The notes under the pieces were generated by a model. It worked only from the letters and a program-made list of their open reading frames with translations, searched no databases and was not told where the DNA came from. The translations under genes were made by a program, and so were the position numbers. Positions 37,400 to 62,846 of a stretch of DNA of 64,000 nucleotides are shown here, piece by piece (positions within the stretch are counted from its first letter, which is position 1; each line of letters begins with the position of its first letter). The stretch lies in IMG/VR virus record IMGVR_UViG_3300030110_002054, positions 12,802 through 76,801 of that record; one strand, given 5' to 3'. Source of the DNA: a virus.

Positions 37400-37909
37400 A
37401 TGACGGAAGACTTCAAGACATTCACAAGTGAGGAAGAAGTAAAATTTCTTTGGGATAGAGATAATCCCGAAGACCCCTACACTAGAGATAAGAAGGACAT
37501 TCCCGATTTCTACAGGTTAGATAATTGGGTAGTCAGATACAAAGATGGTTATGTCGTTGGTGTTGCAGGTTGGAAAGACCACGGAGATTTTGCAGTCTTT
37601 GGTGGAATGAAAGCAATGGCAAAGAACCATCCTTCAGGAAGGGGTGGCGATAATGCAATAGCACTCCTAAACAAGAGAAAGGAACTTATTGGAAACAAAC
37701 CAAAGATTGCAGGTTTCAGACCGGAGAAGATGGATGCTGAAAGATGGACTAATTGGAATGTAGGCCAAGGATATGTTCGTGCGCCGGATTCTTTTGAGAA
37801 TGTTCCCGAAGAATGGCTTGAGATGTTTAGAGAAAGATATGGTGACCATTGGGGTGTAATGAAGTTCGCATCTTGGAGAAACACCATAACGATGGGAAGT
37901 TGGTTGTGA
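37400..37909 (+). CDS. Possible GNAT-fold protein
   Basis: WVVRYKDGYVVGVAGW...AVFGGM...GRGG...ALL resembles GNAT strands and motif A. Confidence 0.4.
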   Translation: MTEDFKTFTSEEEVKFLWDRDNPEDPYTRDKKDIPDFYRLDNWVVRYKDGYVVGVAGWKDHGDFAVFGGMKAMAKNHPSGRGGDNAIALLNKRKELIGNKPKIAGFRPEKMDAERWTNWNVGQGYVRAPDSFENVPEEWLEMFRERYGDHWGVMKFASWRNTITMGSWL

Positions 37910-39342
37910 TGGAATTAGACAACATGGACTTCATGTCCTCTATGGATATGGAATTATCAAAGGCATCATTCCCTTATTTCTTTCAGAACGTACTCGGTAT
38001 GATGTATCCTGACTACATGAAAGAATGGTTAGAAACCATGCAAGGCACAGATAGAACAGTTATCGTCTGTGCGCGTGACCACGGTAAATCTGTCTTCATG
38101 CACAGTTGGGTTGTTTGGAACCTAATCTTCCAAGAGCCTCCATTTCAGATGCTATACATCTCATCGAACCAAAAGCAGACTCTAGTTCACATGAGGGAGA
38201 TTGACAGATACTTCAATCATCCAGCATTGAAGAAATACAAACCTAGTAGGGGTTGGGCAATCGGTAACATTCAACTCACTAATGGCAACGCTATCCTAGA
38301 GAGGTCAGTTGGTTCTCAGATTAGGGGGCTTCATCCACAGGAGATTATCATTGATGACCCTTTGAAGGAGTTCAGTCTATCTGCTATCCAAAGAGTAACT
38401 GATTGGTTCTTCGGTGATATGATACCTACGCTTCACCATTCATCGAATCTTAGAATGATTGGAACTCCATTCACCTATACGGATATCTTCGCGCAACTAG
38501 AAGAGAACCAAGCCTACACCGTGAAGAAGTATCCTTGTTTGGATTCCATGAATGACCCGTTGTGGCCTGAGCGATGGGACTATGATGCTCTCATGCAAAG
38601 AAAAGCAGAGATAGGTTCACTCAAATTCACGCGAGAGTATCTTTGTGTTCCAATCTCAACCGGAACCGCATTGTTCAATCCTGAATATATTGACAAATGT
38701 AAGAGCAAAGAACACGTTCTCAAATTAGGAAATAGAAAAGATAAGGGATACAAATACTATGTTGGTGTTGACCCTGCTATCTCCACAGATGGTGATTACA
38801 ATGTCATTACTGTATTGGAAGTAGATGAGGAGATGAACAAAACAATAGTTCATGTTGACAGGGCGAAGAATGTGGAGTTTAGAGAGAACATAGAGAAGAT
38901 TAGACTGATTGGTAAAATATACCAACCGGAGGAGATTCTCTATGAGACAAATACATTCGCTAAGGCATTTACACAGGAGTTGCGAAGTATCTCCGATTTG
39001 AATGTGAGAGACTTCCATACGACTAGGAAGAATAAACAAGAGATAATTTTGAATCTACAAATGAATATAGAGAATCAGAAACTTAGATTTCCCTATGGGG
39101 ATAATGCTAGTCGCAAGTTGACTGGAATGCTAATCGAAGAATTGTCTATGTTTGCCATTACCAGTAGCGGAAAGTTTGAGGGCGTGGGCGCACACGATGA
39201 CCTTGTTATGAGCCTCGCTCTTGCTAATGCTGCTACTCAAAATCCCAACGAAGTCTTCCTACTATTGGATGATATGGGGATATTTTCAGACCCTAAACCC
39301 ACGAATACGTCTATAGGCGGGATGCTAGGATTAAACTTTTGA
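37909..39342 (+). CDS. terL: Terminase large subunit
   Basis: Walker A ARDHGKS, IRGLH..IIIDDP, IGTP, nuclease GVDPA and HDDLVMSLAL. Confidence 0.95.
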   Translation: MELDNMDFMSSMDMELSKASFPYFFQNVLGMMYPDYMKEWLETMQGTDRTVIVCARDHGKSVFMHSWVVWNLIFQEPPFQMLYISSNQKQTLVHMREIDRYFNHPALKKYKPSRGWAIGNIQLTNGNAILERSVGSQIRGLHPQEIIIDDPLKEFSLSAIQRVTDWFFGDMIPTLHHSSNLRMIGTPFTYTDIFAQLEENQAYTVKKYPCLDSMNDPLWPERWDYDALMQRKAEIGSLKFTREYLCVPISTGTALFNPEYIDKCKSKEHVLKLGNRKDKGYKYYVGVDPAISTDGDYNVITVLEVDEEMNKTIVHVDRAKNVEFRENIEKIRLIGKIYQPEEILYETNTFAKAFTQELRSISDLNVRDFHTTRKNKQEIILNLQMNIENQKLRFPYGDNASRKLTGMLIEELSMFAITSSGKFEGVGAHDDLVMSLALANAATQNPNEVFLLLDDMGIFSDPKPTNTSIGGMLGLNF

Positions 39343-40846: not shown

Positions 40847-42517
40847 ATGGTAGAAGATAAGCGTAGATTTAGTGTTAGAAATTTGTTCAGAAGAACTACG
40901 CCAAAACCTACTGATAGGACGATATTCAATCCCGGTATTCAAGAGAAGAATACCTCCTACATGCTTACTTCTCCAATCATTTACCACATGGTTCAACAAT
41001 CCACCATTGTTAGAACCTGTATAACTCAACTCAAACAGGAGATATTCAGGAGAGGCTACACTTGGGAAGAGAAGTTCGTTGCTAAGTGTAAAGCATGTGG
41101 AGAAGAACATGGGTCACCTGCAAAGAAATGCAAATCCTGTGGCTCAGTAGACTTGGTGAAGCCTGACCCCAAACAATTAGATTATGCACATGATTTCTTA
41201 GAAGGCTATGTCAACAAGTCCGAACAACTTTTTATTGACGTTCTCAAAGAACTTGAGGATGATTTGAATATCATGGATGACGCATATCTTGTCATCGTCA
41301 AAGAATATTACATGGATAGTAATGCAGAAATCAAGATGCATAGAATCAAGGAAATATACAGGGGTGACCCTGTAACTATGCATATCTATTCTAATGAGAT
41401 TGGAGAAAGAGGAAGTAAAGGATATACTTGTTTGAAGCACAGGAATAAGGTCTACACTAATTCAACTGATTTATGTGAAGAGTGTAATTCAGAATTACAT
41501 CCTATCCATTACGTCAATAGAGTAAATGGAGAAGAACAGAATTTCATCAAGGGAGAAGTATTGCATTTCAGTAAGTATTCCCCAAGTAGGTTGTATGGTC
41601 TTTCACCTATCATCACCCTTTGGAATAATGTAACCACATTGATTGCAATGGAGAATTATGTTAACTCATCATATACAAAGGCAAGAATGCCAAGAGGACT
41701 ACTAGCGGTTCAAACTAGAAACATGGATTCAATGAAGTCATTTTGGCGTGGTGTCAAAGAAAAGATGGAACAAGACCCACACTTCATTCCTGTAATGGGT
41801 ATAGAATCCGATAATGGCAAAGGCTCCGTTGAATGGGTGAAGTTCATGGATAGCCTGAAGGAGATGGACTACATCTCAGTCAAGGATGATTTGCGAGATA
41901 GAATCTCTGCATTCTATGGTGTGAGTAAAATCTTCATGGCAGATAACTCCGCTAGTGGTGGACTCAACAATGAGGGAATGCAGGTTCTTGTAACCAATAG
42001 AGCAGTTGAGATGGCACAGACAATTTGGAATAACTATGTCTTCCCATTCATGACGAAGGAGTTCGGCATAACTGATTGGGAATTGAAACTCCCACCGTCC
42101 GAGGAAGAGGATGAGATAGCAAAACTCAGAAAGAGAGAGATAGAAGTAAACGTAGCGGCGGCAATCAAGAATCTAGGATTCGATGTTGATATGGATGATG
42201 ATGGTCGATTCTCGTACAAGAAACCTGACCCTCCTCCGGGTGGTGCTGAACAAGGAGATAAAGAAGGCGAGTTAGAATTAGACCCCTACGCTGGAACAAA
42301 TATCGACCAATCACAATTAGGGCAAATGATGGAACAGGGAACTAGACCTAGTAAGGAAGAAGCAGGTCAACCAGCAGAAGTGAAAGGAAAACCCCCAAGT
42401 GGAAAGAAGAGAAATAAACCCGGTATGAATGTTGGACCGGATAAGAGATTCGCTGGAATGCCTAAAGGAGTAGGCAATGAGAATGTAGATAAGAGAACGG
42501 AAAGGAGAGTTCCATGA
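40847..42517 (+). CDS. Portal protein with zinc-ribbon insertions
   Basis: HK97-like portal features (EVLHF...LYGLSPI, PRGLL, EMDY...RISAFYGV), position after TerL, and CKAC/CKSC and CLKH/CEEC pairs. Confidence 0.88.
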   Translation: MVEDKRRFSVRNLFRRTTPKPTDRTIFNPGIQEKNTSYMLTSPIIYHMVQQSTIVRTCITQLKQEIFRRGYTWEEKFVAKCKACGEEHGSPAKKCKSCGSVDLVKPDPKQLDYAHDFLEGYVNKSEQLFIDVLKELEDDLNIMDDAYLVIVKEYYMDSNAEIKMHRIKEIYRGDPVTMHIYSNEIGERGSKGYTCLKHRNKVYTNSTDLCEECNSELHPIHYVNRVNGEEQNFIKGEVLHFSKYSPSRLYGLSPIITLWNNVTTLIAMENYVNSSYTKARMPRGLLAVQTRNMDSMKSFWRGVKEKMEQDPHFIPVMGIESDNGKGSVEWVKFMDSLKEMDYISVKDDLRDRISAFYGVSKIFMADNSASGGLNNEGMQVLVTNRAVEMAQTIWNNYVFPFMTKEFGITDWELKLPPSEEEDEIAKLRKREIEVNVAAAIKNLGFDVDMDDDGRFSYKKPDPPPGGAEQGDKEGELELDPYAGTNIDQSQLGQMMEQGTRPSKEEAGQPAEVKGKPPSGKKRNKPGMNVGPDKRFAGMPKGVGNENVDKRTERRVP

Positions 42518-46982: not shown

Positions 46983-49598
46983 GTGAATATGCCTCAGTCC
47001 GGTATAGAGTTTGAAAAGAAAGAAAACGCAATGACAAAGCGTGTTCTTGATTTTTTTGAGAGAGTGCGTTATGCATATCTATCTGCTAAGGATGACCCCG
47101 AAGAATACAGAAAGAAATGGGTTAAGGCAATTGAAGACATCAAAGGGGAATTCGATGACATTTCTGATTTCTCTAGAGAATTAAAAGAATACCTAAAGGA
47201 AAAAACACTTTTTTCCGAAGAAGCCAAAGACCCCACTACTAGGCAAGCCAAGGAAGTATATGACTCAATTAAAGAAATGCGATTTGAGTCTAAGGGAGTT
47301 AGTGACCCATTCTCTAAACAGTTAGGTGATGAAGTCATACCCACGCTTTTAGAAAATAAACACACGTTTGCCGCATTCATTCACTATGCAATGCGCTCAC
47401 ATTCCAATGCAATACCTGAGAAGGCTTGGCAAAAATACAAATTACCAGCCGATGAACTAACACAGGGATTCATGGGATTAGATTTAGAGGAGCGTGATAT
47501 TCCTCTCTACATTACAGAACACTATGGTAATGATGAAACTGATAGTAGAAGAATCAAAACCAAGTTTAAGGAAGCCTTCAAGATTCTAGAAAAAGTATTC
47601 AATGGTCAATATGAGGAAGAAGATTGGGAGAATCTCGTTGAATTGGATTTACAGAAATCAGAAAAGAGCGCAGATGAAAAAGCAGAAATTGATTTTATCG
47701 TTCCCAACAAGCCAATGTATCGTATCTTTGAGATTGCGGATTTGAAGAAACTCAAGGGGTTCACAGGCGAATGGGTAGTTCAAGAGAAATACGATGGCAT
47801 GAGAATACAAATACACAAGACAGATGGTAATGTGAAAGTTTACTCCTACAATGAAAAGGACATTACTGACAAGTGTAAGAAACAAGTTGCTCAAATGGAA
47901 AAAAAGCAGTTTGGTGATTGTATTCTAGATGCTGAACTATTATTGTTTGATGGTGATGAGGCACTACATCGTGCTGCAACTGTTACCCACATCTTCAAGA
48001 AAGAAACGAAGCATAGTCTAAGAGCGCACGTTTTTGACATAATGAATCACGAAGGAAAGTCTATTGCAGACGAACCACTCAAAGAAAGAATAAACATTCT
48101 CTTCTATCAATATGGTCAACACTCTTCTGAGGATTTGGCATTCCCATCAAAGAAAGATACGCGACTTGCTGATTCTCTTGATGAGGTCGAGGAGTATTCA
48201 AAGAAAATTATGGAAATGCCAACTTCAGAAGGAGTGGTAATCAAGGACATGGAATCAACCTATTACATCGGAAATAGAAAGAACCCGAAGTGGGTTAAGT
48301 GGAAGAAGTTCGTAGACTTAGATGTAATAGTCTTAGATGTCAAGAAAACCAAAAGTAACCTTCATTCCTACTCATTGGGCATAGGGCCACTATCAGGAGA
48401 AGAGACTAGAGAATACAAGACTCAAGAAATTGATGGGAAAGCATACATGCCCGTAGGTAAGGCAATGAATACTAAAACCAAAGTCAAGGTTGGAGACATC
48501 GTTAGAGTAAAGGTAGATGAGGTCAAGAAAGGAAAGAATGATTTCAAACTAATTTCTGCTCAAGTGATAGAACTACCTGAAGTAGAAACTACTGATAAAA
48601 TTGAGACACTTGAAGAATTAGCCACGAAGACAAAGAAATCCTTAGATTCGGGAATGCACTATGTTTTCGGAGATAAGATAGGCGACTTGTTCAAACCTGA
48701 TACTGGCCTCGATAAAAGTCTCCATATCACCGACCACGTTCATGGCATAGCAGAAGTCATTCTAAAGGGTGAATTGGATGGTTTCACCATTTATGGTTTC
48801 AAGGGTGATTCGCTGATGGCGAAGAATGCTCTTTACGATATTGAAAAATGGAAGGATGACCTTACTGGAATTTTGAAGACAAAGCGTTCTGAATTAAGAA
48901 TAGGCATCCGTAATGAAATCATAGAAAGAGGAAAGCCATTGAACATTGACAAGATAGAAGAATTCGTTGTAACGAACTATCCCAAGACATATGATGAATT
49001 GTATAATTCTGATGATGGCCGCTTAATGTCATGGCTGAAACAACAGGAAGACCTAATCTATGAGCATCCAAATAAGTTCGATGCCAAGAAGGATGTGCTT
49101 GAGAAGGATGTTGAGATAAAGAAAAGACAAGAGACTAACAAGTTCGATGACAAATCTAGCAACCTCGGTGAATTTTCTGTTGTTCTAACAGATGATAATA
49201 ACCTTAACTTAATTATCAATTACAGAGATAAGAAGATGGCTTGGCTATTGGATATAGAAGATAGTGAAGACATATACAACTTATTTGGTAAGTCAGGTAA
49301 ATTCCCTGCTATGGTATTAGACAAAGTGGGAACTGCGAAAAAAACCATAGATAAGGGGGAACTTGAGATAGGGGTACAAAGAAATGGTTATCATGAATAT
49401 AGACTAGATGGCAATAAGTTCCAAACTAGATTGCATATACGAATAGTCCCACTTAATGAGCAAAAAAGATGGTTGGCATGGACTGGAAAGAAACAGGAAA
49501 TGCTAGACCGCAAGGCAGATGATGGTGTTTGGGACATTACTGAAGATAAGTATGCAGATGTAGAGTTACCTCCATCTGAAAACGAAGACGCTAAATAG
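46983..49598 (+). CDS. Multidomain ATP-dependent DNA ligase located in the head module
   Basis: Motif I QEKYDGMR, ILDAEL, HVFDI, SEGVVIKD, WVKWK..DLDVIV and an OB domain. Additional N-terminal domain and a C-terminal LigD phosphoesterase-like domain. Confidence 0.9.
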   Translation: MNMPQSGIEFEKKENAMTKRVLDFFERVRYAYLSAKDDPEEYRKKWVKAIEDIKGEFDDISDFSRELKEYLKEKTLFSEEAKDPTTRQAKEVYDSIKEMRFESKGVSDPFSKQLGDEVIPTLLENKHTFAAFIHYAMRSHSNAIPEKAWQKYKLPADELTQGFMGLDLEERDIPLYITEHYGNDETDSRRIKTKFKEAFKILEKVFNGQYEEEDWENLVELDLQKSEKSADEKAEIDFIVPNKPMYRIFEIADLKKLKGFTGEWVVQEKYDGMRIQIHKTDGNVKVYSYNEKDITDKCKKQVAQMEKKQFGDCILDAELLLFDGDEALHRAATVTHIFKKETKHSLRAHVFDIMNHEGKSIADEPLKERINILFYQYGQHSSEDLAFPSKKDTRLADSLDEVEEYSKKIMEMPTSEGVVIKDMESTYYIGNRKNPKWVKWKKFVDLDVIVLDVKKTKSNLHSYSLGIGPLSGEETREYKTQEIDGKAYMPVGKAMNTKTKVKVGDIVRVKVDEVKKGKNDFKLISAQVIELPEVETTDKIETLEELATKTKKSLDSGMHYVFGDKIGDLFKPDTGLDKSLHITDHVHGIAEVILKGELDGFTIYGFKGDSLMAKNALYDIEKWKDDLTGILKTKRSELRIGIRNEIIERGKPLNIDKIEEFVVTNYPKTYDELYNSDDGRLMSWLKQQEDLIYEHPNKFDAKKDVLEKDVEIKKRQETNKFDDKSSNLGEFSVVLTDDNNLNLIINYRDKKMAWLLDIEDSEDIYNLFGKSGKFPAMVLDKVGTAKKTIDKGELEIGVQRNGYHEYRLDGNKFQTRLHIRIVPLNEQKRWLAWTGKKQEMLDRKADDGVWDITEDKYADVELPPSENEDAK

Positions 49599-49610: not shown

Positions 49611-50855
49611 GTGGGAGAAGTGTTACTGCAAAAGAAACAACATATAACGGAGGAAAGAAGTGGGAATTTTCAGATTTTAAAGTCTGATAATCTAGTCATT
49701 GGTGGTTATGCATCCATAGAAATAGTAGACAAACAAAATGACCTAATTACATTAGAAGCACTCTCAGAAGCAGTAACAAAATACATGGAAGACCAAAAAT
49801 TCAGAAATGTAATGTCAAATCATTCAAATGTCCAAGTCGGGGAGGTAATAGAAAAATACCGAGATAAAAACGGAAATCTACACAAAACAGAAGTGGATGA
49901 CGTTGGATTCTATGTAGTAATCAAGATGCGCGATGACATCGAGAAGGCTAAAGAAATCTCAAGAGGTATCAGAAAAGGAACGCTTCGGTCTTTCAGTATA
50001 GGTGGACAGGCAATCTCAAAGAAGCAAAAGAACAATTCTGAATTTGGACAGTATAATGAAATAGATAAGTTGGAATTACATGAAGTTACTATCTGTGAAA
50101 AGGGGATTAATCCCGAAGCGAAATTCGACATTTTGAAAATGGAGGACAAAAAAATGAGTGATAAACTGGAAAAAGCACTTGGCGAGTTGAATGATTTGGT
50201 AGCCCAAATCGGCGGCATCGACAAGGAAGACGACATAAGAAAGGAAGCGGAGTATATGGACACCGATGAGGAAATGGACGATATGGACATGGACGATGAG
50301 GTAGAAAGCATGGATTCTGAGATGAAGGCTGATGAAGATGCAGAAGCACCCGATGACGAGGAAAAGGCTCTTGACGAGGATGAGACAAGAGAATTTGAGG
50401 CTGGCGAGGAAGTAGTTAGTGGCGGAAAGCCAACTGCTGCACCTGCTGCACTCGGAAACGTCAACAAGGGATTAGAGGCATCTGATTTCCCAACTCTCAA
50501 CTTGACTGCTGAGAATGTCGAGAAGGCATATGAGCAATACAAGGCAGAGCAGTTGGAGAAGAGGGCTTTTGATTCTCTATCCAAGCAGTTTGAGAACAGA
50601 CTGTCCGAAGAACTAGCCGTTAAGAAGGCTAACGCAGAAAGAGCAGAGTACGATGCTCGGACTGATGTTGCTGGTCTAAAGGCAGAGTTCGCAGAACTAA
50701 GGAAGTCCCTCTCCGAGAAGGATACTGAGATTCGCAAGGCAAGGGAAGTAGCATTTAGCCTTCCTGAAGGAGTACCCACCGATACTGAGGCTGCGGCTGA
50801 AGTTTCATGGGATGATATCCACACCTTTGCAAGAAACATGAACAGGAGTGATTGA
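49611..50855 (+). CDS. Prohead protease (HK97/U35-like) fused to an acidic coiled-coil scaffold
   Basis: IGGYAS..IVDKQND, MSNH...VG, RSFSIGG, LHEVTIC..GINPEA. Acidic coiled-coil C-terminal half. Directly precedes the MCP. Confidence 0.9.
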   Translation: MGEVLLQKKQHITEERSGNFQILKSDNLVIGGYASIEIVDKQNDLITLEALSEAVTKYMEDQKFRNVMSNHSNVQVGEVIEKYRDKNGNLHKTEVDDVGFYVVIKMRDDIEKAKEISRGIRKGTLRSFSIGGQAISKKQKNNSEFGQYNEIDKLELHEVTICEKGINPEAKFDILKMEDKKMSDKLEKALGELNDLVAQIGGIDKEDDIRKEAEYMDTDEEMDDMDMDDEVESMDSEMKADEDAEAPDDEEKALDEDETREFEAGEEVVSGGKPTAAPAALGNVNKGLEASDFPTLNLTAENVEKAYEQYKAEQLEKRAFDSLSKQFENRLSEELAVKKANAERAEYDARTDVAGLKAEFAELRKSLSEKDTEIRKAREVAFSLPEGVPTDTEAAAEVSWDDIHTFARNMNRSD

Positions 50856-50857
50856 AA

Positions 50858-52252
50858 ATGACAGGATATATACGAACGATGAAAGATTTGGAAGCCGCAA
50901 CATACGGCGTCCGTGGCGAGAATGGTAATGCCCTGCTAAAGGCTGGTGGCGTTGTTGGGGGTTTCGGAACTCCTCACGATGCTGGTTCCAACCCTTTTAC
51001 AGCGGCTACTGGTCTAGGTGACCTATACAACCTGCTTTATGGGCAGAAAGTTTGGTCGATGCTAAACCAAGAGGTAAACCCTCTCTCAATGATTGCAAAG
51101 AGGCCATACACCTCATCAGGTTGGAGAGTTCTAAAGGCTCGACCAATGGGTGGTAGCGGTTCTGCTTTCACAGTAGGGTCTAACGATGTAACGAAGACCA
51201 TGAACTCTACTCAAGCCGCCACACCAAAGCCTGACCAAATTGGTGGTATGCCGGAGAATGCGGCTCTAGGGACTGCTCCCTTTACTGCAATGGCTCCTGA
51301 ATACACCAAGTTGTATGTCAGCCCAAAGACGATTGCTCATCTATTTGAGTTCTCGGAACTTGGTATGGAGATGGCTGCTATTGATGACGGTGTTGGAGAT
51401 ATACGCTCAATCGTCCGTGAGGACATGGGTAAACTCCACGCTGAGGTTCAGAGCAAGATGCTACTAATGCCTCTTGAGCAGTATGACCAAACCGGAATTA
51501 CCAACATGGATAGGAACTACACTTCTCTAATGAAGATAGTTTCGTCTGCACAGGAAATCGGGAAGATGATGGAAGCAGACCTTCTAGTAACTGCTGGACA
51601 GGACAACGATGCAACCGCACCTGCTGATGACGTAGCAAAAATCTTCGGAGATGCTAGGGCAGTAACCAAGACTGGAAGTAGCGGTTCATTCGTCTACACC
51701 GGAACTGCATCTTTCCTAGATGCTGAGGTTGATTTTGGTGGCTCATACGAGAGTGCATCAGATGCTAGGATTCTAACCCTAAGCATACTAAACGACATGA
51801 TTCGCAGACTAAGGCAGAATGGCGGTAACCCAAAGGTTATCCTAACTGGATACGATACCATCCAGCATCTATCTGACCTTCTACAGTCGCAAGAGCGATT
51901 CATGGACAGGAAGGAGATTGTACCAACCCACAACGGAGTTCGTGGTGTGAAGGGTGCAGAAGTTGGTTTCAGAGTAGCGACCTACTACGACATACCCATC
52001 ATCCCTGCGAAGGATATGCCGACCACATCCAGCAACACGACCAATACCCTAAGCGACATACTGATGCTAGATACGGACCATCTGTGGCTATCAGTCATGA
52101 AGCCAACTCAATACTTTGAGGATGGAATTACTTCAGGTAACCCATTCGGTGTTGGAACTCTTGGGAACCAAGGCATGTACCGAACAATGGGCGAGACATG
52201 CTGCTCCTTCTTCAAGGGCCAAGGAAAGATTACGAACCTAAAGAGTGCTTGA
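50858..52252 (+). CDS. Major capsid protein (HK97 fold)
   Basis: Follows the protease/scaffold, ~464 aa. NQEVN..S..KRPY...GWRV, PKTIAH.FE.SE, YYDIPIIP and C-terminal GKITNL. Confidence 0.85.
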   Translation: MTGYIRTMKDLEAATYGVRGENGNALLKAGGVVGGFGTPHDAGSNPFTAATGLGDLYNLLYGQKVWSMLNQEVNPLSMIAKRPYTSSGWRVLKARPMGGSGSAFTVGSNDVTKTMNSTQAATPKPDQIGGMPENAALGTAPFTAMAPEYTKLYVSPKTIAHLFEFSELGMEMAAIDDGVGDIRSIVREDMGKLHAEVQSKMLLMPLEQYDQTGITNMDRNYTSLMKIVSSAQEIGKMMEADLLVTAGQDNDATAPADDVAKIFGDARAVTKTGSSGSFVYTGTASFLDAEVDFGGSYESASDARILTLSILNDMIRRLRQNGGNPKVILTGYDTIQHLSDLLQSQERFMDRKEIVPTHNGVRGVKGAEVGFRVATYYDIPIIPAKDMPTTSSNTTNTLSDILMLDTDHLWLSVMKPTQYFEDGITSGNPFGVGTLGNQGMYRTMGETCCSFFKGQGKITNLKSA

Positions 52253-52266
52253 TTGGGGTTGATTAA

Positions 52267-52626
52267 ATGACACACACAACTGTCATCCACACCAATCATC
52301 TAGGTCTTGCTGCCTCTAAGGTACAAGGCTCAGAGTATGTGGTCGATGCTACTATTGACATCAGCGCATACACCGCACAAGGAGAAGTAGTGACTGCATC
52401 GGAACTAGGTCTTAGTTTCATCAATTGCGTCCTGATTACCGGACGAGAAGTTGATGGCGCACATAAGATTCTGAACGATGTCGGCGTGAAGATTGCCGCC
52501 GAAACCGGAGTATATGAGAGCAATACGTCTTTCAAACTGGTCAGCACTATTTCCGCTAGTGGAAACGTTGGAGCAACTGACGGAACCACAGGCGCAGTAA
52601 GAATACGCGCATACGGAAACCTTTGA
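52267..52626 (+). CDS. Putative capsid decoration/cement protein
   Basis: 119 aa, beta-rich, immediately after the MCP, and followed by a strong hairpin. Confidence 0.55.
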   Translation: MTHTTVIHTNHLGLAASKVQGSEYVVDATIDISAYTAQGEVVTASELGLSFINCVLITGREVDGAHKILNDVGVKIAAETGVYESNTSFKLVSTISASGNVGATDGTTGAVRIRAYGNL

Positions 52627-52637
52627 GCAAACGTAAA

Positions 52638-52680
52638 GTAGTGCCTTCTTGCCCTAGTAATTTAGGGCAAGGGGCATTAC
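52638..52680 (+). terminator. Stem-loop after the capsid genes
   Basis: GTAGTGCCTTCTTGCCCTAG-TAAT-TTAGGGCAAGGGGCATTAC, an ~19-bp stem with G-U pairs on the plus strand. Confidence 0.7.
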
Positions 52681-52701
52681 CCCCTGTCTGTAGGTGAAAA
52701 C

Positions 52702-53172
52702 ATGGCGAAAGTTAGGTTGAAAAGAAGCAGGGCGAATACCCCGTTGATACTGCAAGGAAGATACGAGATAACGACTAGATTTACGGAGATACCCTTTAGG
52801 GCTGCTCGTAGATTGATTGGAGATTCGGGAGTAGTAATTGAGTGGACGGAGAAAGACCGCCGCGAAATAAAGAACCTTCCAGATTCTAAGCAAAATAAAT
52901 TTGCTAGGGCATTAGGTATGCCTGAAGGACTTCTTATGGAAGAGGCTGCTTTTAGAAGAAAGGATAGGAAAGCAAAGAAAGCGGCCAAGGAGCAAGAGAA
53001 GCAGAAAGAGGCTCCACCTGCAATTGTAGAAGAAAAACCTGCTTTGGAACCTCTTCCCCCTAAACTAAAGGATTTGACGGTCAAAGAACTAAAGAAACTT
53101 CTAGATGAGAGAAAACTATCTACGGAAGGTAAAAAAGCAGATTTGATTAAGAGACTATCGGAGGAAGGCTGA
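52702..53172 (+). CDS. SAP/HeH-domain protein
   Basis: C-terminal LKDLTVKELKKLLDERKLSTEGKKADLIKRL. Confidence 0.8.
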   Translation: MAKVRLKRSRANTPLILQGRYEITTRFTEIPFRAARRLIGDSGVVIEWTEKDRREIKNLPDSKQNKFARALGMPEGLLMEEAAFRRKDRKAKKAAKEQEKQKEAPPAIVEEKPALEPLPPKLKDLTVKELKKLLDERKLSTEGKKADLIKRLSEEG

Positions 53173-53453
53173 TGGGAGGATGTGCTGGTAGTGGGGTAAA
53201 GACTGCTGATGCAGTCGTTCAAGTAGGTAGATGTTCACTACAGGGAATTAAGGCCACAAATGTATCAGGCTCTACATTTACAGTTCAAGTATATGATTCT
53301 GCAACCGCAACTACTTCTGGTAAAGTGGAAATTGCTAGAATGGTTCTAGCCGCAAATGGCTCTCTAGAGTATGATATGCATGGTCGCATGTGTGCTGAGG
53401 GACTATATGTTGATATTACCGGAAGCGGAACCTATTCTTTGGAGTGGGTGTAA
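53172..53453 (+). CDS. Small beta-rich virion protein
   Basis: 93 aa, Gly/Ser/Thr-rich (VYDSATA...GLYVDITG). Confidence 0.6.
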   Translation: MGGCAGSGVKTADAVVQVGRCSLQGIKATNVSGSTFTVQVYDSATATTSGKVEIARMVLAANGSLEYDMHGRMCAEGLYVDITGSGTYSLEWV

Positions 53454-53884
53454 TGCCAAGCATTGACACAGATACAAGGCTAGTAATGACTATCCTTTTC
53501 GTTGGAGCAGTAAGTGGCTCTAACATATTTTGGTATTCACAATATGGAATTACTTTCCCATATGGAGCATTTGAACATGCCATACTGTTTGGCATTCTAA
53601 CTGTTGGAGGCATCATGTGCCTCAAAGCATTCTTTGACTTGTTCATGAATGACTACATCGAGGAATGGCTACTACAGAGGAGAATAGATTCCTATTGGGG
53701 TAGAAAGGCTAGAGAAGAGGAGAACCGAAAGAGGGTAAGAGATTCAATGAGACAGTTCAATCAGAACTTCAATATCGCAACCCCTCCTGCTTATGGTGAT
53801 ACTAACTTCCCTAATCTCCCATTGATAAAACCGGAAGAGAACACGGTTACACCTACATTCTTGACACCTATACAGAATGAGTAG
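53453..53884 (+). CDS. Two-TM membrane protein
   Basis: Hydrophobic segments LVMTILFVGAVSGSNIFW and AILFGILTVGGIMCLKAFF, then a charged coiled coil. Confidence 0.75.
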   Translation: MPSIDTDTRLVMTILFVGAVSGSNIFWYSQYGITFPYGAFEHAILFGILTVGGIMCLKAFFDLFMNDYIEEWLLQRRIDSYWGRKAREEENRKRVRDSMRQFNQNFNIATPPAYGDTNFPNLPLIKPEENTVTPTFLTPIQNE

Positions 53885-53892
53885 GTGTAAGT

Positions 53893-54117
53893 GTGGTAAG
53901 TGAAATCCTATTCGGGATGGATGAATCCACTCTCGCATATGATTTGCAACGAGCGCATTCTGCTGACATTTGGTTTCTCAGGGCTAGATTTTGGTTTTGG
54001 GGAATCGTTGGTTCTCTCACTAGTTTTGTCATAGGACAAGCATTTGCCGTAGCAGGTGTGAATACGCTTTCTATTGCATGGGGCGGCTTAACGGATTTTT
54101 GGAATCATTTGTGGTGA
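53893..54117 (+). CDS. Small membrane protein
   Basis: FWFWGIVGSLTSFVIGQAFAVAG TM segment. Confidence 0.7.
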   Translation: MVSEILFGMDESTLAYDLQRAHSADIWFLRARFWFWGIVGSLTSFVIGQAFAVAGVNTLSIAWGGLTDFWNHLW

Positions 54118-54121
54118 TTGA

Positions 54122-54793
54122 ATGTCAGTTATGGCGGGATTCGCCATACTGCTTGTAGAGGGAATCAATAAGATTTACCAACGTCTTCATGCAATTAATT
54201 TTGGAGTTTATGGTGCAAGCAAAGTAGGTAAGACCACATTGCATCATCAATTGAGAACAAGAGGAGAAGTTCCTACAATTCTAAATAGAACAGAAGGAAG
54301 ACACAGGGCCAGCAGAAAGTATGTAAAATTAGATGGGGATGCTCATACTGTCAAAACTGCTGACATTGGTGGAGAAACTGTTTATTGGAATGAATGGATT
54401 CAAGACATGAAAACTAGAAGGCCAAAATACATTATTTTCATGATTGATGACAGACACATGGATAAGCACTATGATATCGAACAACAATTGTGTTGGACTT
54501 TCTTAGTTGATTCTATATGCTCTTCTCATTGGCATATAGGAAACAAGAAGAAGAAAAAGCGTGACCACGACTTCCCTATTGCAATTGGATTGTGGGCGAA
54601 TAAGTATGATTTATGGAAAGACAAGTATGAGTTTGATGGGCCAATAGAAAAACATCCTATCTTTGAATCATTCAGAAATGGAATGCAGAAATTAAACGAT
54701 AAGGGAATTCCTTGTTTTAAATACATTGTAAGTGCTAAATCTGACTCTGAGATGGTGTATAGAGGAATCCTAACAATGATAAAGGATTACTGA
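54122..54793 (+). CDS. Small Ras-superfamily (Arf/Sar-like) GTPase
   Basis: G1 GASKVGKT, G2 T (NRTEG), G3 DIGG, G4 NKYD, G5 SAK. Hydrophobic N-terminal helix. Confidence 0.85.
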   Translation: MSVMAGFAILLVEGINKIYQRLHAINFGVYGASKVGKTTLHHQLRTRGEVPTILNRTEGRHRASRKYVKLDGDAHTVKTADIGGETVYWNEWIQDMKTRRPKYIIFMIDDRHMDKHYDIEQQLCWTFLVDSICSSHWHIGNKKKKKRDHDFPIAIGLWANKYDLWKDKYEFDGPIEKHPIFESFRNGMQKLNDKGIPCFKYIVSAKSDSEMVYRGILTMIKDY

Positions 54794-54806
54794 GCGAGTG
54801 GGTTAG

Positions 54807-55496
54807 ATGTCAATACAATACCAGCCATCCAACCTGCTTGAATTGCATAGTGACGGAACTAATCCGTTTCTTAATAGATTAGACTCTGCTAGGGCCGCAG
54901 GTGCAATAACCGCATACGAATACAAGAGTACGAAACCAAAGAAGCAATTGAAAGAGATTATCAAAGTTCTAATGCCTGAAAATAAGACATTCATGAAAGT
55001 GCCTTACAGGTTCAAGTATAACATCAAAGATAGGTGTGTCATTTGTGGAACTCATAAAGTATGGGATGGTTCTGATTCAATGCGACCACCTTTACCACTT
55101 CACAAAGTAAGAAAGGGATATCCAATGCGAGGAACTTACTGTGACAAACATGCCGCCATACACAGACAATATGAGATGTTAGAGCAACAGATACTAGCCG
55201 AGGAACATGGTCTTTCCTTTAGCGCATACATTCCTTCTGCTAAGAGTTTAAACCCTGTTAATCTAGTAACTTCGGGACCATTAACCACATTAAAGGAAGC
55301 CGATATTCATTCTTTGTCTTCATTGGGATGGGTTATCAAACCTCCTCAAATGGGTAGTTCTTCTAAGGAAGAGGAACTATACAAACTACTAATCGAGAAT
55401 GAAGGAGTTAGTTCACGAATGAAAGCATTATTGACTGAAGGCGTAGTCGTGACAGATGTAGAAGCAGACGCGACTACTGAACAGGAGGAAGCATAA
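54807..55496 (+). CDS. Zinc-finger protein of the GTPase module
   Basis: CVICG and YCDKH. Confidence 0.7.
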   Translation: MSIQYQPSNLLELHSDGTNPFLNRLDSARAAGAITAYEYKSTKPKKQLKEIIKVLMPENKTFMKVPYRFKYNIKDRCVICGTHKVWDGSDSMRPPLPLHKVRKGYPMRGTYCDKHAAIHRQYEMLEQQILAEEHGLSFSAYIPSAKSLNPVNLVTSGPLTTLKEADIHSLSSLGWVIKPPQMGSSSKEEELYKLLIENEGVSSRMKALLTEGVVVTDVEADATTEQEEA

Positions 55497-56182
55497 TGGG
55501 ACTTTTCGGAACTAGTAATAGTAATCTGATGACACAGATGAATCAAAATAACCAAGGCCAATTCAAAGCAATAAACAATCTATTGACGCTACAAGAAAAT
55601 CATGTGGAAGACTTTTTTCAATATCATGGTGAAACTTTTCTAGCGGCTTTAGCACAATTGATGGAAGATACGGTGCAGAAAGTATTGGGCCAAATGCTAC
55701 CTGAGTTGAAATTTGTAACTAACACGAATGGAGACATGGAAGTATCTAGTGATGCATTAACAACATATGCAACCATAACTGCGGAGAACATACAACTTGA
55801 CTTGCAGAACCTATTAGCGTCTGCAATCAATAGTGAAGTAATAATGCAAAGAAGAATGGCCAAGCAACAGTATCTTGAAGCACAGGGCTTCCAAGCACCT
55901 GCGGCACAGAATCCACAGGTTACTAATGCTGGTGGACTGGACCCAAGCATGATACAAGGTGGAAATGCTTCGGTGGGAATGAACAATACCATGATGCAAC
56001 AACAACAGGCATTCAACAACCAATCAGGATATCCTATTCCACCATCAGGCTATGACAATATGAATAATCCCTATTGGATTGACCCAATGACAGGCCAACC
56101 AACATACACCCCTCCGTCTAGCGGATTAGGTCTAGGTCAAGCATTATCCAAGGGTGTTGCTTGGGCTAAGTGGCTTGCTTAG
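55496..56182 (+). CDS. Gln/Asn-rich protein with a C-terminal amphipathic helix
   Basis: 228 aa with a low-complexity Q/N/P/G region, ending LGQALSKGVAWAKWLA. Confidence 0.72.
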   Translation: MGLFGTSNSNLMTQMNQNNQGQFKAINNLLTLQENHVEDFFQYHGETFLAALAQLMEDTVQKVLGQMLPELKFVTNTNGDMEVSSDALTTYATITAENIQLDLQNLLASAINSEVIMQRRMAKQQYLEAQGFQAPAAQNPQVTNAGGLDPSMIQGGNASVGMNNTMMQQQQAFNNQSGYPIPPSGYDNMNNPYWIDPMTGQPTYTPPSSGLGLGQALSKGVAWAKWLA

Positions 56183-56198: not shown

Positions 56199-58964
56199 AT
56201 GGATATTCTTATTGATAGAAATATCAAGGGGCTAGAACACTTAGAATATTCACCCACTCTCCGACCTGCTGATAAGAATAAGGATTTTGAAAAATTATTC
56301 AAGAACCAACCAATCTTCAGATATTTTTGTGCTTACCCATTTCAAGGGGTAATACAGAACCCAACCAGCAAGATGAGAATGGCCGATAGAACGGTTAGAG
56401 TCTTACTACAATTGGATAAGGAAGACGTAACTGGAAACTTTGATGAAGATGAATTTGACTCACATCTAGAAAAATATCTACAACTAATACAGAAAGAGCC
56501 AATTATGTCTATTATTGCTTTATTGGAACAAGAAGGATTCATCAAGAAAAAGGGAGGCAAGGGAGCATTCCTTTCTGCTCCCATTAAGAGAAAAATGCGA
56601 AAGCAAGACACTACATTCAGAAAATTAGAATCACAAGTTGTCAGAGATGAATTAGTCGGTTATAGATACGAGAAAGGAGCGTTGATTCCTACTCCAAAGA
56701 CAGGAGAATCTAGTAAAAAGAAAGTTACGCAAGAGCAGAAGGATAAGACATATTCCAAAAGAACTTCAGATTTCATGGATGCCTTTGATAAGGATACTGC
56801 GGTAATTATAGAAGACAAATTAAAGGAACAAATTGATGTAGCGGATACCAGTAAAACAAGGAAAGATGGTTCAATCAGCACTAAAAACATTCTAGTTTCA
56901 ATAGACACTAGAGAGTATTTTAGGAAGTTATTCATTAAGAATGGGTTTGGGGATTTCAATGACCCTGATGAGTTCTATTTTGGTGTAAGAGGAAAAACAA
57001 CAGAAGATGAAGAGATGGACTCTAAACGCTCCACACAACAGGATAGGGACAAAGCATTCCAAGCAGAACTTAGGTCCGGTGAGAAGCAAAAGAAAGAAGC
57101 AGATGCTAAAGCATGGTTCTATGAGCAAGAAGACATTGATGAAGACGATGAAAGAAACGCTATAGCAAGTAAAAGAAAAAACATCAAACCCGATGATGTG
57201 ACATATACAATGCTTGCAGATAATCTAGACCCCAATTGGTTTGACGAAGATGTAGAAAAAATGCTTGTTCTCAAAGCAGCCCCGAAAGACTCGGATACTG
57301 CATTAGCAACAATGGGACAACAAAAAGAACCCGATACCAAAGATAAGGATGGTAAAACAACAGAAGGTTCTAGAAGTTTCTACATCAAAGACTTTGATGG
57401 CAAGAAAACGAAGTATAATACTATAGAAGAATTTCATGAAGCCTTGGTAGATTTCCAAGAGAATGAATTTACTCCAAGTAAGATAGAAGACATGGCAAAG
57501 AAAGAATTAGAGTCACGAAAAGAAAATAGATTGAAGACTCAAGTAAAGGCATATTTAACTCCCAAAAACAATCTAATAGAAGTAGGGCAAGCAAAAATTA
57601 ATTTTAGTATGGATGTTACTAACTTAGAAAGTCCTGAAGCCTTAACACGCTACATTATGTCTGATAAAAATTGGGGAGAACAACCTTTTGAAGATGGGCC
57701 GGATACTAAGTCTACACCATACGAAAAAGAAAAGAGAAGTCTAGCAAAAATTGCTGACAGAGTTTTCAGCGAAATTGATAACTTAGAAAAAACGATTAAT
57801 GCAAAGGGTGACAAACCATATGTTCCTAATTTATTGAGTATGTTATTTGGTAGTCAGGTTGGGTTATTTGAAAGGGTAGTTAATTCTGACAGTCTAGAAT
57901 CCGCTACTAAATATCCTGAAGAAAGGAATAGTAGAGTTAAGGTAAAGGATGTCCTTGAAAGGATTGAATTGATGAAAGACAAACTACTAGACGATTTAGA
58001 AAATGCAAAGAAAGGGCGTTACATACAAGAAGAGGCGAATGTGACAGACCCTTCAGGAAATGAAATTTGGTTTGAGTATGACCCTGAAACTCAACAATAT
58101 GGCAAGTCTGTAGGTGTCATGCAAATGCATCCGAAAGATGCAAATTATTCTTATGGGAGACATGATGATGAAAGTAGAAAGAAAATGGAGAAGAATCCTA
58201 ATTTTAATTGGGTTCTGACAAAACCTGAACTTGATTTTGGCCCCGTAAAAGAGAAGGACGTAGAGATAAGGGAGGCATATGAGGCTACAAAAAATATGTC
58301 TAGATATCTAGACCTAGAAGAATCCGAAGAGGGAGAGATGGCAGAACCCAGTAATCCCGCAGAAGTCAAGCAATACTTGAGGCAATTAGAGAATGTCGTG
58401 AAGGGAATAGTGACTGCATTAGATAGACTGTCAGATGCAATGCGAAAGAAGACTACTAAAACCGATACAAGAGGAAACCCAGTCAAAGGAGAACCTGCTG
58501 GAAAAGGTAGTCTAAATTGGTATCTTGCTTATTTAGAAACTGATAATAACGTAAATGATTTTTATGATGATTGGTTAGATGATTGGTTTGCAACCACTCC
58601 TACATCAAAAGGAGGATGGAGGCAGATACGTTCTCAAGTTAAAGCCTTAGATATTCCTTTAGTTTGGATAGCATCAAGTGAATTAGAGGAGACTGATGCT
58701 ATAGACACTAGAGCGCAAAGACCTGAATCATGGAGAAGAAGTGCATCAGGTAAGAATCCATTTAGAGCCGGAACACGTTTTGGTGATGAAAGAATCTCAA
58801 CACAAAGAAAGAAAACAGTCGAATCTCCTAAAGGTGATAAATCAGTTACAGACCAATATGGTGGAGAAGGAAGTAGCGATGAAATTAAATCGGCTATTCT
58901 AGACATGCATTCAATTTATGTTGAGTATATAGAATTAAAAGAAGTAGTGGAGAGTGCGACTTAA
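56199..58964 (+). CDS. Large hypothetical protein
   Basis: 921 aa, charged, with internal VEKM and VLKA sites. Confidence 0.75.
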   Translation: MDILIDRNIKGLEHLEYSPTLRPADKNKDFEKLFKNQPIFRYFCAYPFQGVIQNPTSKMRMADRTVRVLLQLDKEDVTGNFDEDEFDSHLEKYLQLIQKEPIMSIIALLEQEGFIKKKGGKGAFLSAPIKRKMRKQDTTFRKLESQVVRDELVGYRYEKGALIPTPKTGESSKKKVTQEQKDKTYSKRTSDFMDAFDKDTAVIIEDKLKEQIDVADTSKTRKDGSISTKNILVSIDTREYFRKLFIKNGFGDFNDPDEFYFGVRGKTTEDEEMDSKRSTQQDRDKAFQAELRSGEKQKKEADAKAWFYEQEDIDEDDERNAIASKRKNIKPDDVTYTMLADNLDPNWFDEDVEKMLVLKAAPKDSDTALATMGQQKEPDTKDKDGKTTEGSRSFYIKDFDGKKTKYNTIEEFHEALVDFQENEFTPSKIEDMAKKELESRKENRLKTQVKAYLTPKNNLIEVGQAKINFSMDVTNLESPEALTRYIMSDKNWGEQPFEDGPDTKSTPYEKEKRSLAKIADRVFSEIDNLEKTINAKGDKPYVPNLLSMLFGSQVGLFERVVNSDSLESATKYPEERNSRVKVKDVLERIELMKDKLLDDLENAKKGRYIQEEANVTDPSGNEIWFEYDPETQQYGKSVGVMQMHPKDANYSYGRHDDESRKKMEKNPNFNWVLTKPELDFGPVKEKDVEIREAYEATKNMSRYLDLEESEEGEMAEPSNPAEVKQYLRQLENVVKGIVTALDRLSDAMRKKTTKTDTRGNPVKGEPAGKGSLNWYLAYLETDNNVNDFYDDWLDDWFATTPTSKGGWRQIRSQVKALDIPLVWIASSELEETDAIDTRAQRPESWRRSASGKNPFRAGTRFGDERISTQRKKTVESPKGDKSVTDQYGGEGSSDEIKSAILDMHSIYVEYIELKEVVESAT

Positions 58965-60821: not shown

Positions 60822-62402
60822 ATGACAAACACTAATATTCTATCAAATGAAACATTCGTAGGTGCATTAGCAACTGCAACTATGATACCTGAGAGCGATA
60901 TATATCTAGAGAATTGCACTATCGCCGCTTCTGATTTGACTACAGTAACCGTAGCAGACTCAACTGTAAGTCATCTAGTTCCTAATCTCTATGTGGGGTG
61001 CATGGCAAAGATACATGGTAACTCAACTAAGAAAGGAAACTATCTAATCAAGAGTAATACCACTACAACAATAACATTCGCAGAAGATGTAGCGGGGGCT
61101 AATAGCGAGGACTCAATAGACGTTACAATTTATGGCTTCGGCGCACCATGTCCAGCACCTCCGGTAATTACGGGCAAGCCTACTCTATTGGCAGATAATT
61201 GGCTGGGCTTGGTAAATACACTAACTCCTCCATCTGTGGAAGTAGAAATAGGCCAAATCAATCTAGCAGGAGCCGCTACTAGAAATATAGAATACCAATT
61301 CAAAAAGAATGAAACAGTTAGTGGTGGGTCATTAGATTTCTCTGTAAACAATGGGTCTTGGTTATATTACGCATTGGGTGACTTTACTGTAGCGAATAGC
61401 AACCACACTCTAGCAAGTGCTGGTAATGCTCTATCGGGAACAGGTTATGCCGTGGATTTAACCCATGATAAGTTTCTAAGAGTTATTGGTGGAGCAGAAT
61501 ATCCTCCACAGGACAAAACAGATGTCCATACTGAAAGCGTATGGGATGATAATAGACAAATGGTAACAGAAGGAGGTTCGGGTTATTGGACATATAATTT
61601 CACAGAAAGCAATGGGGATTCTCTTCCTTCGTTTGCTCTAGAAGTTACATATGAGAAGGGTGACCTTGCTGATGCGAACTACTATGTTGGTAGCGAAGGT
61701 GGTTCGACAGATGCAACTGCAAAACCATTCAAGGATATCTACAGTAGAGTTTTTACTGGTTGTCAAGTAAATACTCTTACGCTTAACTTTGAAGAGGGTC
61801 AAGAACTTAGAGGCAATGTTGACTTAGTGACAAGAAGGGCTTTTGATGCTCCTGACGACTACTCACCAAAAAGAAGAGTTAGGACCGCTACTGGCCTATT
61901 CAACTACGCTTCTTCTGATGCTGATGTTAGACCTTACATGTTCAGCCAAGGAACGGTACAGTTGTACGGTCAAACTTTGGCTAGAGTTAAAACTGGTTCA
62001 GTTACTATTTCAAATAACATAGCCCAAGCAAGATATATTGGACAATATGATAGAGGAATAATGTCAAACCACATTCCTGCCCAAAGAACCTATGAGATTT
62101 CTTTGACTATGGAAATAGTAGATACAAAACTGTGGGACAATCTAAGAGCAGATGGCGAACATCAGAATGCCGCAGGAGATACTACTCTTCCCTATGATGG
62201 TAAGATTATGATTAAGTTTGAGAAAGATAGCACAGACTACATTGAGTTGGCATTTACAGATTACATAACACAATCACTAGATATTCCGTTCCCTGAAGAT
62301 AAGGGACCAATAGATGTTGCAGCAACATTTTCGGCTAGAACCCTACAAACCGCAAAGTATGTTGGAAACTGGAAGATACTACACTCCAATACAGGTCTTT
62401 AG
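60822..62402 (+). CDS. Major tail tube protein
   Basis: 526 aa, Thr/Ser/Gly-rich. LPSFALE...RVFTGCQVNTLTLNF pattern. Followed by chaperone genes and the tape measure gene. Confidence 0.72.
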   Translation: MTNTNILSNETFVGALATATMIPESDIYLENCTIAASDLTTVTVADSTVSHLVPNLYVGCMAKIHGNSTKKGNYLIKSNTTTTITFAEDVAGANSEDSIDVTIYGFGAPCPAPPVITGKPTLLADNWLGLVNTLTPPSVEVEIGQINLAGAATRNIEYQFKKNETVSGGSLDFSVNNGSWLYYALGDFTVANSNHTLASAGNALSGTGYAVDLTHDKFLRVIGGAEYPPQDKTDVHTESVWDDNRQMVTEGGSGYWTYNFTESNGDSLPSFALEVTYEKGDLADANYYVGSEGGSTDATAKPFKDIYSRVFTGCQVNTLTLNFEEGQELRGNVDLVTRRAFDAPDDYSPKRRVRTATGLFNYASSDADVRPYMFSQGTVQLYGQTLARVKTGSVTISNNIAQARYIGQYDRGIMSNHIPAQRTYEISLTMEIVDTKLWDNLRADGEHQNAAGDTTLPYDGKIMIKFEKDSTDYIELAFTDYITQSLDIPFPEDKGPIDVAATFSARTLQTAKYVGNWKILHSNTGL

Positions 62403-62477: not shown

Positions 62478-62846
62478 GTGGAAAAAATGACAGAAAAAGT
62501 AGTAAATGATAAAGCAATGCTGTTTGCAAAAACAGAAACCGAATGCCATCAAATCAAGGTAATGCCTGATTCTGATGAGATACTGAAAGTATGGATAAAG
62601 GAACCCACTTGGTTACAAGTGGAACAGTCTCTATCCAAGTTAATGAAACTCGATACTTCCGGTAATATGGATATTGACTTGAATGAGTTGTATAGATATC
62701 TAGTAGAGGAATTCATAGAGAAGACAGAACCTTCTCTCACTCCTCTAGAGATAATGAGATTGAATCCATATATCGGAATGCAATTAAAAGATGTTCTCCC
62801 TAATCCCTTTGAGGAATTAAGCGGAGATGATACGGGAAAAGCGTGA
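62478..62846 (+). CDS. Tail assembly chaperone (G-like)
   Basis: Lies between the tail tube and tape measure genes and ends at the slippery site G GGA AAA. Confidence 0.75.
   Translation: MEKMTEKVVNDKAMLFAKTETECHQIKVMPDSDEILKVWIKEPTWLQVEQSLSKLMKLDTSGNMDIDLNELYRYLVEEFIEKTEPSLTPLEIMRLNPYIGMQLKDVLPNPFEELSGDDTGKA
62834..62840 (+). other. -1 programmed ribosomal frameshift heptamer GGGAAAA
   Basis: X XXY YYZ in frame just before the stop. The -1 frame continues into ORF 62843-63052. Confidence 0.75.

Follow-up and report, generated by a model that had tools for sequence, protein, structure and literature searches.

The stretch of viral DNA analyzed here (the window, 64,000 bases long) comprises bases 12802-76801 of the 76.8-kb IMG/VR record IMGVR_UViG_3300030110_002054, which is estimated to be 76% complete. 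The record belongs to the magroviruses, tailed viruses that are assigned to marine group II archaea. Between its capsid protein gene and its neck/tail genes, within one uninterrupted plus-strand operon, lies a block of five genes (a cassette) encoding two small membrane proteins (TM-A and TM-B), a small GTPase, a Cys/His protein and a glutamine/asparagine-rich (Q/N-rich) protein. The products of the cassette probably form a membrane-associated GTPase switch complex. No gene in the neighborhood is as well conserved as that for the GTPase. The egress machinery of archaeal tailed viruses is, according to a review, wholly uncharacterized (PMC10791045). The five-gene block is not described in the literature that we searched, and the magrovirus papers within that literature make no mention of a GTPase.

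The five open reading frames (ORFs), all on the plus strand, fill positions 53453-56182, spaced by at most 14 bases or overlapping (Table 1). The original prediction, which was made from the letters of the window, had placed the block in exactly this position, between head and neck genes, and the flanks agree: the capsid protein gene lies on one side and the tail tube gene on the other. For TM-A the ORF list gives a GTG start at 53444, whereas the relatives begin at a conserved MPSIDTDTR that corresponds to the ATG at 53453. Kyte-Doolittle hydropathy peaks at residues 10-28 and 43-61 of TM-A indicate two spans, which are followed by an Arg/Lys/Glu-rich tail with a conserved FLT near the C-terminus; the TM-A alignment contains 36 invariant columns. 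TM-B has one span, at residues 38-56, a Trp-rich end (WNHLW) and a highly conserved stretch of 33 N-terminal residues, with AYDLQRAHSAD invariant. Hydropathy thus bears out the two membrane proteins that had been predicted. Among the large non-overlapping ORFs of the genome, the only convincing membrane-spanning products are TM-A and TM-B; the other hydropathy matches were judged to be tiny or antisense ORFs. In the Q/N-rich protein (21.5% Q+N), a conserved N-terminal half of helical character leads into a middle rich in Q, N, G and P, after which come a Pro/Tyr-rich segment and the C-terminal AWAKWLA, both invariant. Its composition is as predicted, but the amphipathic character claimed for its end turns out to be weak (hydrophobic moment of around 0.26).

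None of the four non-GTPase cassette proteins matches a family in Pfam, PHROG or NCBIfam. A structural model of the Cys/His protein (predicted local distance difference test score, pLDDT, 63) retrieved nothing from PDB with Foldseek at E <=1e-3, and its best wide score with VIA-align, Z 5.7, is within noise. Searches of the ESM Atlas with the Cys/His and Q/N-rich proteins returned unnamed viral clusters alone, with scores of up to 0.84. All five are real genes under purifying selection. Compared with six relatives, nonsynonymous divergence (dN) is lowest for the GTPase (0.11-0.16), against 0.15-0.22 for the capsid protein and 0.17-0.40 for the remaining cassette genes, in comparisons for which synonymous divergence (dS) is saturated (>=1.0 or not computable).

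The GTPase carries all five G motifs, as had been predicted: G1 is GASKVGKT at residues 31-38, the G2 candidate is Thr57, G3 is DIGG at 81-84 followed by Glu85, G4 is NKYD at 160-163 and G5 is SAK at 204-206. In an alignment of 21 homologues that are 63-83% identical to the window protein, G31, G36, K37, T57, D81, G84, N160, K161, D163 and S204-A205-K206 are invariant and T38 is nearly so. The G1 motif GxxxxGK[ST] is present in all 79 proteins of group 1 and all 77 of group 2 that were checked (the groups are defined below). The window has Glu after DxGG, which the original prediction had noted in place of the catalytic Gln, but this is no trait of the family: 79 close relatives divide into 49 with Glu and 30 with Gln, and Gln predominates in group 2. 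The predicted N-terminal hydrophobic helix is also recovered, at residues 2-22, in an AlphaFold2 model (pLDDT 72; predicted template modeling score, pTM, 0.73) that has a disordered switch I and a canonical small-GTPase core. Residues 1-19 have a mean hydropathy of 1.36 and a hydrophobic moment of 0.38. The distant relatives examined also start with a hydrophobic segment, in some cases long enough for a true membrane span. A Lys-rich insert of about 25 residues lies ahead of G4. By its motifs and its modeled fold, the protein is a Ras-superfamily (TRAFAC) small GTPase, for which binding and hydrolysis of guanosine triphosphate (GTP) are predicted.

Its placement within the superfamily is less sharp. 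In a Foldseek search of PDB the GTPase model gave at least 500 matches at E <=1e-3, led by Rab and Ras (E of about 2e-7). VIA-align, which is independent of Foldseek, gave Z scores of 12.0 for Arf6, 11.7 for SR-beta, 11.6 for both an Asgard Rag-like protein and Gi-alpha, 11.4 for Arl2 and 11.2 for Sar1; these top scores all lie within one Z unit, so that G-alpha and Rag are tied with the Arf family. Asgard archaea have Arf-family GTPases, among them ArfR (PDB 8OUN; bioRxiv 10.1101/2024.02.28.582541). Among solved structures, ArfR is the best match to the window GTPase in sequence, with a weak E of 0.007, followed by KRas (0.014). The Pfam matches of the window GTPase are all below threshold (MMR_HSR1, SRPRB and Roc; for SRPRB, PF09439, 17.3 bits against a cut-off of 25), Pfam Arf (PF00025) does not match it at E <=0.1, and NCBIfam yields a sub-threshold small_GTP domain match alone. 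In 28 members of the wider GTPase family, however, Pfam Arf gives the best E-value, 5e-10, in distant relatives. Nearly all members of the wider family have a Trp 11 residues after the G3 Asp, a position at which Arf1, Sar1 and G-alpha have Trp as well. Some homologues bear the automatic Joint Genome Institute (JGI) label 'GTPase SAR1 family protein', and a cluster look-up of the distant relatives gave no names except one label, 'SRP receptor subunit beta'. With the Arf family the viral protein shares the small-GTPase fold, the five G motifs, a GKTT P-loop, a DxGG switch II and a helix before strand 1. It differs in the Glu at the position of the catalytic Gln, in lacking the Gly2 that would be myristoylated and in its Lys-rich insert, and the viral relatives examined are N-terminally anchored rather than canonical Arf or Ras proteins. 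With SR-beta it shares the N-terminal anchor, the sub-threshold SRPRB match and the fold match. From sequence and model, we read the protein as a very divergent Arf/SR-beta-like GTPase and not as a certified member of the Arf family. The Arf/Sar-type call of the original prediction is reasonable: Arf6, SR-beta and Sar1 are nearest by fold and ArfR by sequence, but G-alpha and Rag tie with them and no curated cut-off is reached.

A scan of IMG/VR with the window GTPase found 124 relatives, of which 80 loci were kept (group 1). The five genes occur in the same order in all 80 of these close relatives, wherever the contig reaches that far. Median identity in group 1 is highest for the GTPase (81%), compared with 74% for the capsid protein and 63-67% for the remaining four cassette genes. 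Furthermore, all 17 additional records that were picked by the capsid gene alone (>=59% identity) contain the GTPase. A GTPase-family profile search of 1.84 billion representative proteins gave 87 matches, and those beyond the main cluster and fragments are proteins of 220-280 amino acids (aa). When prokaryotic genomes, one for each of 185,579 species, were searched, the GTPase matched just two contigs, of 29 and 12 kb (NZMJ01000101.1 and NZMJ01000024.1; loci L261 and L262), both in one metagenome-assembled genome (MAG) labeled Maricaulis sp.; these contigs are probably mis-binned magrovirus. The GTPase family is virus-encoded and essentially absent from cellular genomes. It was not found among GenBank phage records (INPHARED), and the relatives P0153, P0178 and P0129 are not in IMG/VR. 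The homologues come from marine metagenomes and viromes of at least 11 studies. Magroviruses reportedly dominate the archaeal virome of the surface ocean (PMC5434244).

Two further groups of viruses have the same architecture in other locations. Group 2 (80 loci) was found via a distant GTPase relative, and group 3, which consists of metagenome contigs, via another. The GTPases of both are about 30% identical to the window GTPase. The group 2 capsid protein is 40-53% identical to that of the window, and group 2 is therefore a second magrovirus group. In both groups the gene order is again two membrane proteins, GTPase, Cys/His homologue and Q/N homologue, followed by an extra gene (Table 1). 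The window Cys/His protein is homologous to its counterparts in group 2 (hhalign probability 96%, E 1.9e-9) and in group 3 (hidden Markov model, HMM, E 1e-37 to 1e-40). Likewise, the Q/N-rich protein has a homologue in group 2 (hhalign probability 93.5%, E 2.4e-7), and the group 3 Q/N proteins match the group 2 HMM (E 3e-13 to 1e-4); indeed, all group 3 cassette members match group 2 models. For the membrane proteins, TM-A shows a weak similarity to its group 2 counterpart that is not significant (hhalign E 0.0026, probability 11%), and TM-B has no significant profile match to its own (probability 2%). TM-A and TM-B are equated with their group 2 counterparts by position, size and topology; in group 3, too, both positions are occupied, and the TM-B counterparts of groups 2 and 3 agree with it in size and topology. 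Thus, co-conservation, which the original prediction had proposed as a check, extends to three virus groups, and the first of its refuting conditions, a lack of co-conservation, is clearly contradicted.

The location of the cassette differs between groups. In a complete group 2 genome of 118 kb, about 8 kb separate the cassette from the terminase gene downstream of it and about 23 kb separate it from the capsid gene, all on one strand, whereas in group 1 it lies behind the capsid gene; therefore, the block has moved as a whole within the late region. The neighbors differ as well. The group 2 cassette is directly preceded by the gene for a protein that is about 2000 aa long and contains several CxxC/His clusters (L117:132-6080; L125, L147, L152, L154). 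This protein has no detectable relationship to the 921-aa protein that adjoins the cassette in group 1, nor to the 688-aa and 1018-aa proteins of the window. In group 3 (L170:1813-5102; L175, L179), two glycosyltransferases, a double GT4/GT1 enzyme of 808 aa and a GT2 enzyme, are encoded immediately upstream of the cassette, an association that points towards the cell surface, and an additional, unassigned protein of about 255 aa separates the second membrane protein from the GTPase.

Comparison of the three groups also modifies the view of the Cys/His protein, which had been predicted to be a zinc-finger protein. Its pattern is C77-x2-C80 ... C112-x2-H115-x3-H119, in a conserved core at about residues 40-135. 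Within group 1, C77, C80, C112 and H119 are invariant, in keeping with the prediction, but across the three groups C77 alone is invariant, the other ligands being lost in group 3. The ligands are not conserved across groups, and thus any metal site is not essential to the family. We also considered an ArfGAP-like zinc finger and dropped it as a general claim, given the loss of ligands in group 3 and the lack of a fold match. When the GTPase was modeled in complex with residues 36-140 of the Cys/His protein (its core), GTP and Mg, the prediction scored 0.02, which speaks neither for nor against binding.

The nearest functional analogy in archaea is the ArvABC (OapABC) system of Haloferax volcanii, in which an Arf-like GTPase with an N-terminal amphipathic helix, the SepF-like ArvB and the Zn-ribbon protein ArvC control the budding of vesicles from the cytoplasmic membrane (PMC10927574). 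In the viral cassette, too, an Arf-like GTPase with an N-terminal helix is encoded beside a Cys-rich, zinc-type protein. However, the integral membrane proteins, of which there are two or three, and the Q/N-rich protein set the cassette apart. When the whole viral record was searched in six frames, ArvB (OapB, PF09846) gave no match at E <=0.01, with the family found in the Haloferax and Methanosarcina controls, and ArvC (OapC, PF09845) has no match in the record, with that family found in three control genomes; the Cys/His protein itself has no Pfam match to PF09845. The comparison with ArvA that the original prediction made therefore survives as an analogy: the cassette may work alike, and it is not a member of the ArvABC system.

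A second comparison is with the holin cassettes of phages. There as here, small membrane proteins are encoded in a late operon, and the two spans and charged C-terminal tail of TM-A recall the layout of class II holins; TM-B has a single span. In contrast, TM-A and TM-B match no holin family, and the ORFs scanned yielded neither an endolysin nor a spanin. To our knowledge, the known holin systems have no GTPase. The presumed host lacks peptidoglycan.

If these features are combined, the five genes would constitute one late-expressed cassette, whose products would form a complex, controlled by GTP, at the host membrane on its cytoplasmic side. The N-terminal hydrophobic helix would hold the GTPase at the membrane beside TM-A and TM-B, with the charged tail of TM-A and the conserved N-terminal domain of TM-B facing the cytoplasm, and the Cys/His and Q/N-rich proteins may serve as regulator and/or effector of the GTPase. 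Late in infection, a timed opening or remodeling of the membrane would then let finished particles leave the peptidoglycan-free host, the GTPase acting as switch or timer and the holin-sized TM-A and TM-B acting in the bilayer. We infer the physical association of the five proteins, the membrane localization of the GTPase, the late timing and the role in egress from the features described above.

Egress is the purpose that we favor for the cassette: it encodes the only membrane proteins of the genome that are convincing, it is core and strongly conserved, and a review counts the release of archaeal tailed viruses as uncharacterized (PMC10791045). In both layouts, cassette and structural genes share a strand. 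Like the lysis, egress or membrane-associated assembly suggested in the original prediction, this assignment is based on context and analogy; it is tentative, and we hold it with less than even confidence. The more specific proposal, that this cassette is the release machine still missing for tailed viruses of archaea, in which an anchored Arf-like GTPase times and drives the assembly of the small membrane proteins and the Q/N-rich effector and thereby opens or buds the membrane, is a speculative one that we would not expect to hold in full. Several results weigh against the egress reading. The position of the group 1 block inside the virion operon fits a role in assembly equally well. No partner family common to the cassette and ArvABC is detectable, and the GTPase passes no curated Arf family threshold. 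The holin-like features of TM-A and TM-B are not specific, and neither protein has a PHROG or Pfam match. A zinc-dependent GAP-like (GTPase-activating protein-like) role is not general, because the Cys/His ligands are lost in group 3. The original prediction that no lysis pair would be recognizable agrees with the 50 ORFs scanned, in which no lysis-category PHROG family was found; those ORFs are about half of the total in a genome that is 76% complete, and another lysis system could exist.

Three other roles have to be weighed. The cassette might act in virion assembly or maturation instead of release, as a membrane platform or chaperone for building or joining heads, necks and tails, with GTP hydrolysis as a checkpoint. 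That the group 1 block stands between capsid and neck/tail genes in one plus-strand operon, that the group 2 block shares the strand of the structural genes and immediately precedes the terminase region, and that the GTPase is more conserved than the capsid protein, as would be expected of a core morphogenesis factor, all agree with such a role. However, the block occupies different places relative to the head and tail genes, its five proteins have no match among head, neck or tail families, and we know of no tailed virus elsewhere whose assembly needs membrane proteins or a small GTPase; we consider assembly unlikely.

The cassette might instead take over the host at its membrane, through superinfection exclusion, a block or redirection of secretion or of targeting by the signal recognition particle (SRP), anchoring of replication or assembly sites, or a change of the cell surface. 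The SR-beta-like features of the GTPase (N-terminal anchor, SRPRB match and fold matches) and the glycosyltransferases adjoining the group 3 cassettes are in line with this, and the restriction of the family to viruses fits a dedicated virus-host interface. Genes for accessory takeover or exclusion are usually variable and patchy in distribution, whereas this cassette is core (17/17 and 80/80 records), its GTPase is the slowest-evolving gene nearby, and it is co-oriented with the late structural genes in both layouts. We consider a takeover role as unlikely as one in assembly.

Least probable, and in our view quite improbable, is that the proteins are packaged in the virion and inserted in the membrane of the next host to form or control a DNA conduit: the genes do lie in the structural operon, adjoining the large, fast-evolving 921-aa protein in group 1 and the ~2000-aa protein in group 2, and small hydrophobic proteins are typical of ejection sets, internal or ejection proteins being present in some phages, but these large neighbors are not detectably related to each other, none of the five N-termini has the W-x-x-[ILV]-L-K leader that is a candidate capsid-targeting tag, and, as far as we know, no virion packages a small GTPase, for which the inside of a capsid would offer no free GTP.

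The surroundings of the cassette in the window are those of a magrovirus structural module (Table 1). The module contains an ATP-dependent ligase-like gene, and a ligase in such a place is described as a trait of magrovirus groups A and B (PMC5434244). Three small genes lie between the capsid gene and the cassette. Two of them, of 119 and 93 aa, have no family match and are 33-50% identical in most relatives; they may encode decoration or head-completion proteins. The third encodes a 156-aa protein with a C-terminal SAP DNA-binding motif (Pfam SAP, E 1.5e-9) and is poorly conserved (27-82% identity among relatives). Directly downstream of the cassette, the highly charged 921-aa protein, which has no family match, evolves fast: it is 21-45% identical or undetectable in relatives whose neighboring genes are 60-80% identical. 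In the marine metatranscriptome run X20, contigs 100% identical to the window cover 51057-52776 (the capsid gene and the next gene), with the caveat that DNA carry-over into the library is possible. The X20 contigs fall on the capsid region and none on the cassette, and such contigs cannot show absence; two further RNA runs contained no matching contigs.

Table 1. Cassette genes and structural-module genes of the window, and the corresponding features of groups 2 and 3. Positions in the window are in bases from its first letter.
Feature	Position	Strand	Length and predicted features	Basis or context
Large terminase	37849-39342	+		Structural module
Portal	40847-42517	+		Structural module
ATP-dependent ligase-like gene	46983-49598	+		Embedded in structural module
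Prohead protease	49611-50855	+		Structural module
HK97-type capsid protein	50852-52252	+		Structural module
Small gene	52267-52626	+	119 aa	Between capsid gene and cassette
SAP-motif protein	52702-53172	+	156 aa	Between capsid gene and cassette
Small gene	53172-53453	+	93 aa	Between capsid gene and cassette
TM-A	53453-53884	+	143 aa, two predicted spans	ORF, alignment, hydropathy
TM-B	53893-54117	+	74 aa, one predicted span	ORF, alignment, hydropathy
Small GTPase	54122-54793	+	223 aa	Motifs, AlphaFold2, fold search
Cys/His protein	54807-55496	+	229 aa, orphan family	Alignment, profile comparison
Q/N-rich protein	55496-56182	+	228 aa	Alignment, composition; start overlaps stop of previous gene
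Charged protein	56199-58964	+	921 aa	Directly downstream of cassette
Tail tube	60822-62402	+		Structural module
Tail assembly chaperone-like gene	62478-62846	+		Structural module
Groups 2/3, gene 1			135-200 aa, one or two spans	
Groups 2/3, gene 2			70-99 aa, one span, Trp-rich end	
Groups 2/3, gene 3			GTPase	
Groups 2/3, gene 4			245-340 aa	
Groups 2/3, gene 5			190-230 aa, Q/N-rich	
Groups 2/3, gene 6 (extra)			77-107 aa, two spans	
Group 2, cassette	~15.8 kb	one strand		Complete genome, 118 kb
Group 2, terminase	24.2 kb	one strand		Complete genome, 118 kb
Group 2, portal	27.1 kb	one strand		Complete genome, 118 kb
Group 2, capsid	39.1 kb	one strand		Complete genome, 118 kb
Group 2, tail tube	45.5 kb	one strand		Complete genome, 118 kb

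This core, virus-restricted cassette provides a concrete set of five genes for the question of how archaeal tailed viruses leave their hosts. Even if its role should be in assembly or takeover, it is unusual for a tailed virus to have a small GTPase whose evolution is slower than that of the capsid protein. If the favored reading is true, membrane switches of the Arf type extend to viruses of prokaryotes, which would bear on the spread of GTPase-driven membrane remodeling before eukaryotes; and if the cassette is indeed a release machine, it would be the prokaryotic-virus counterpart of the GTPase-nucleated membrane remodeling of eukaryotes.

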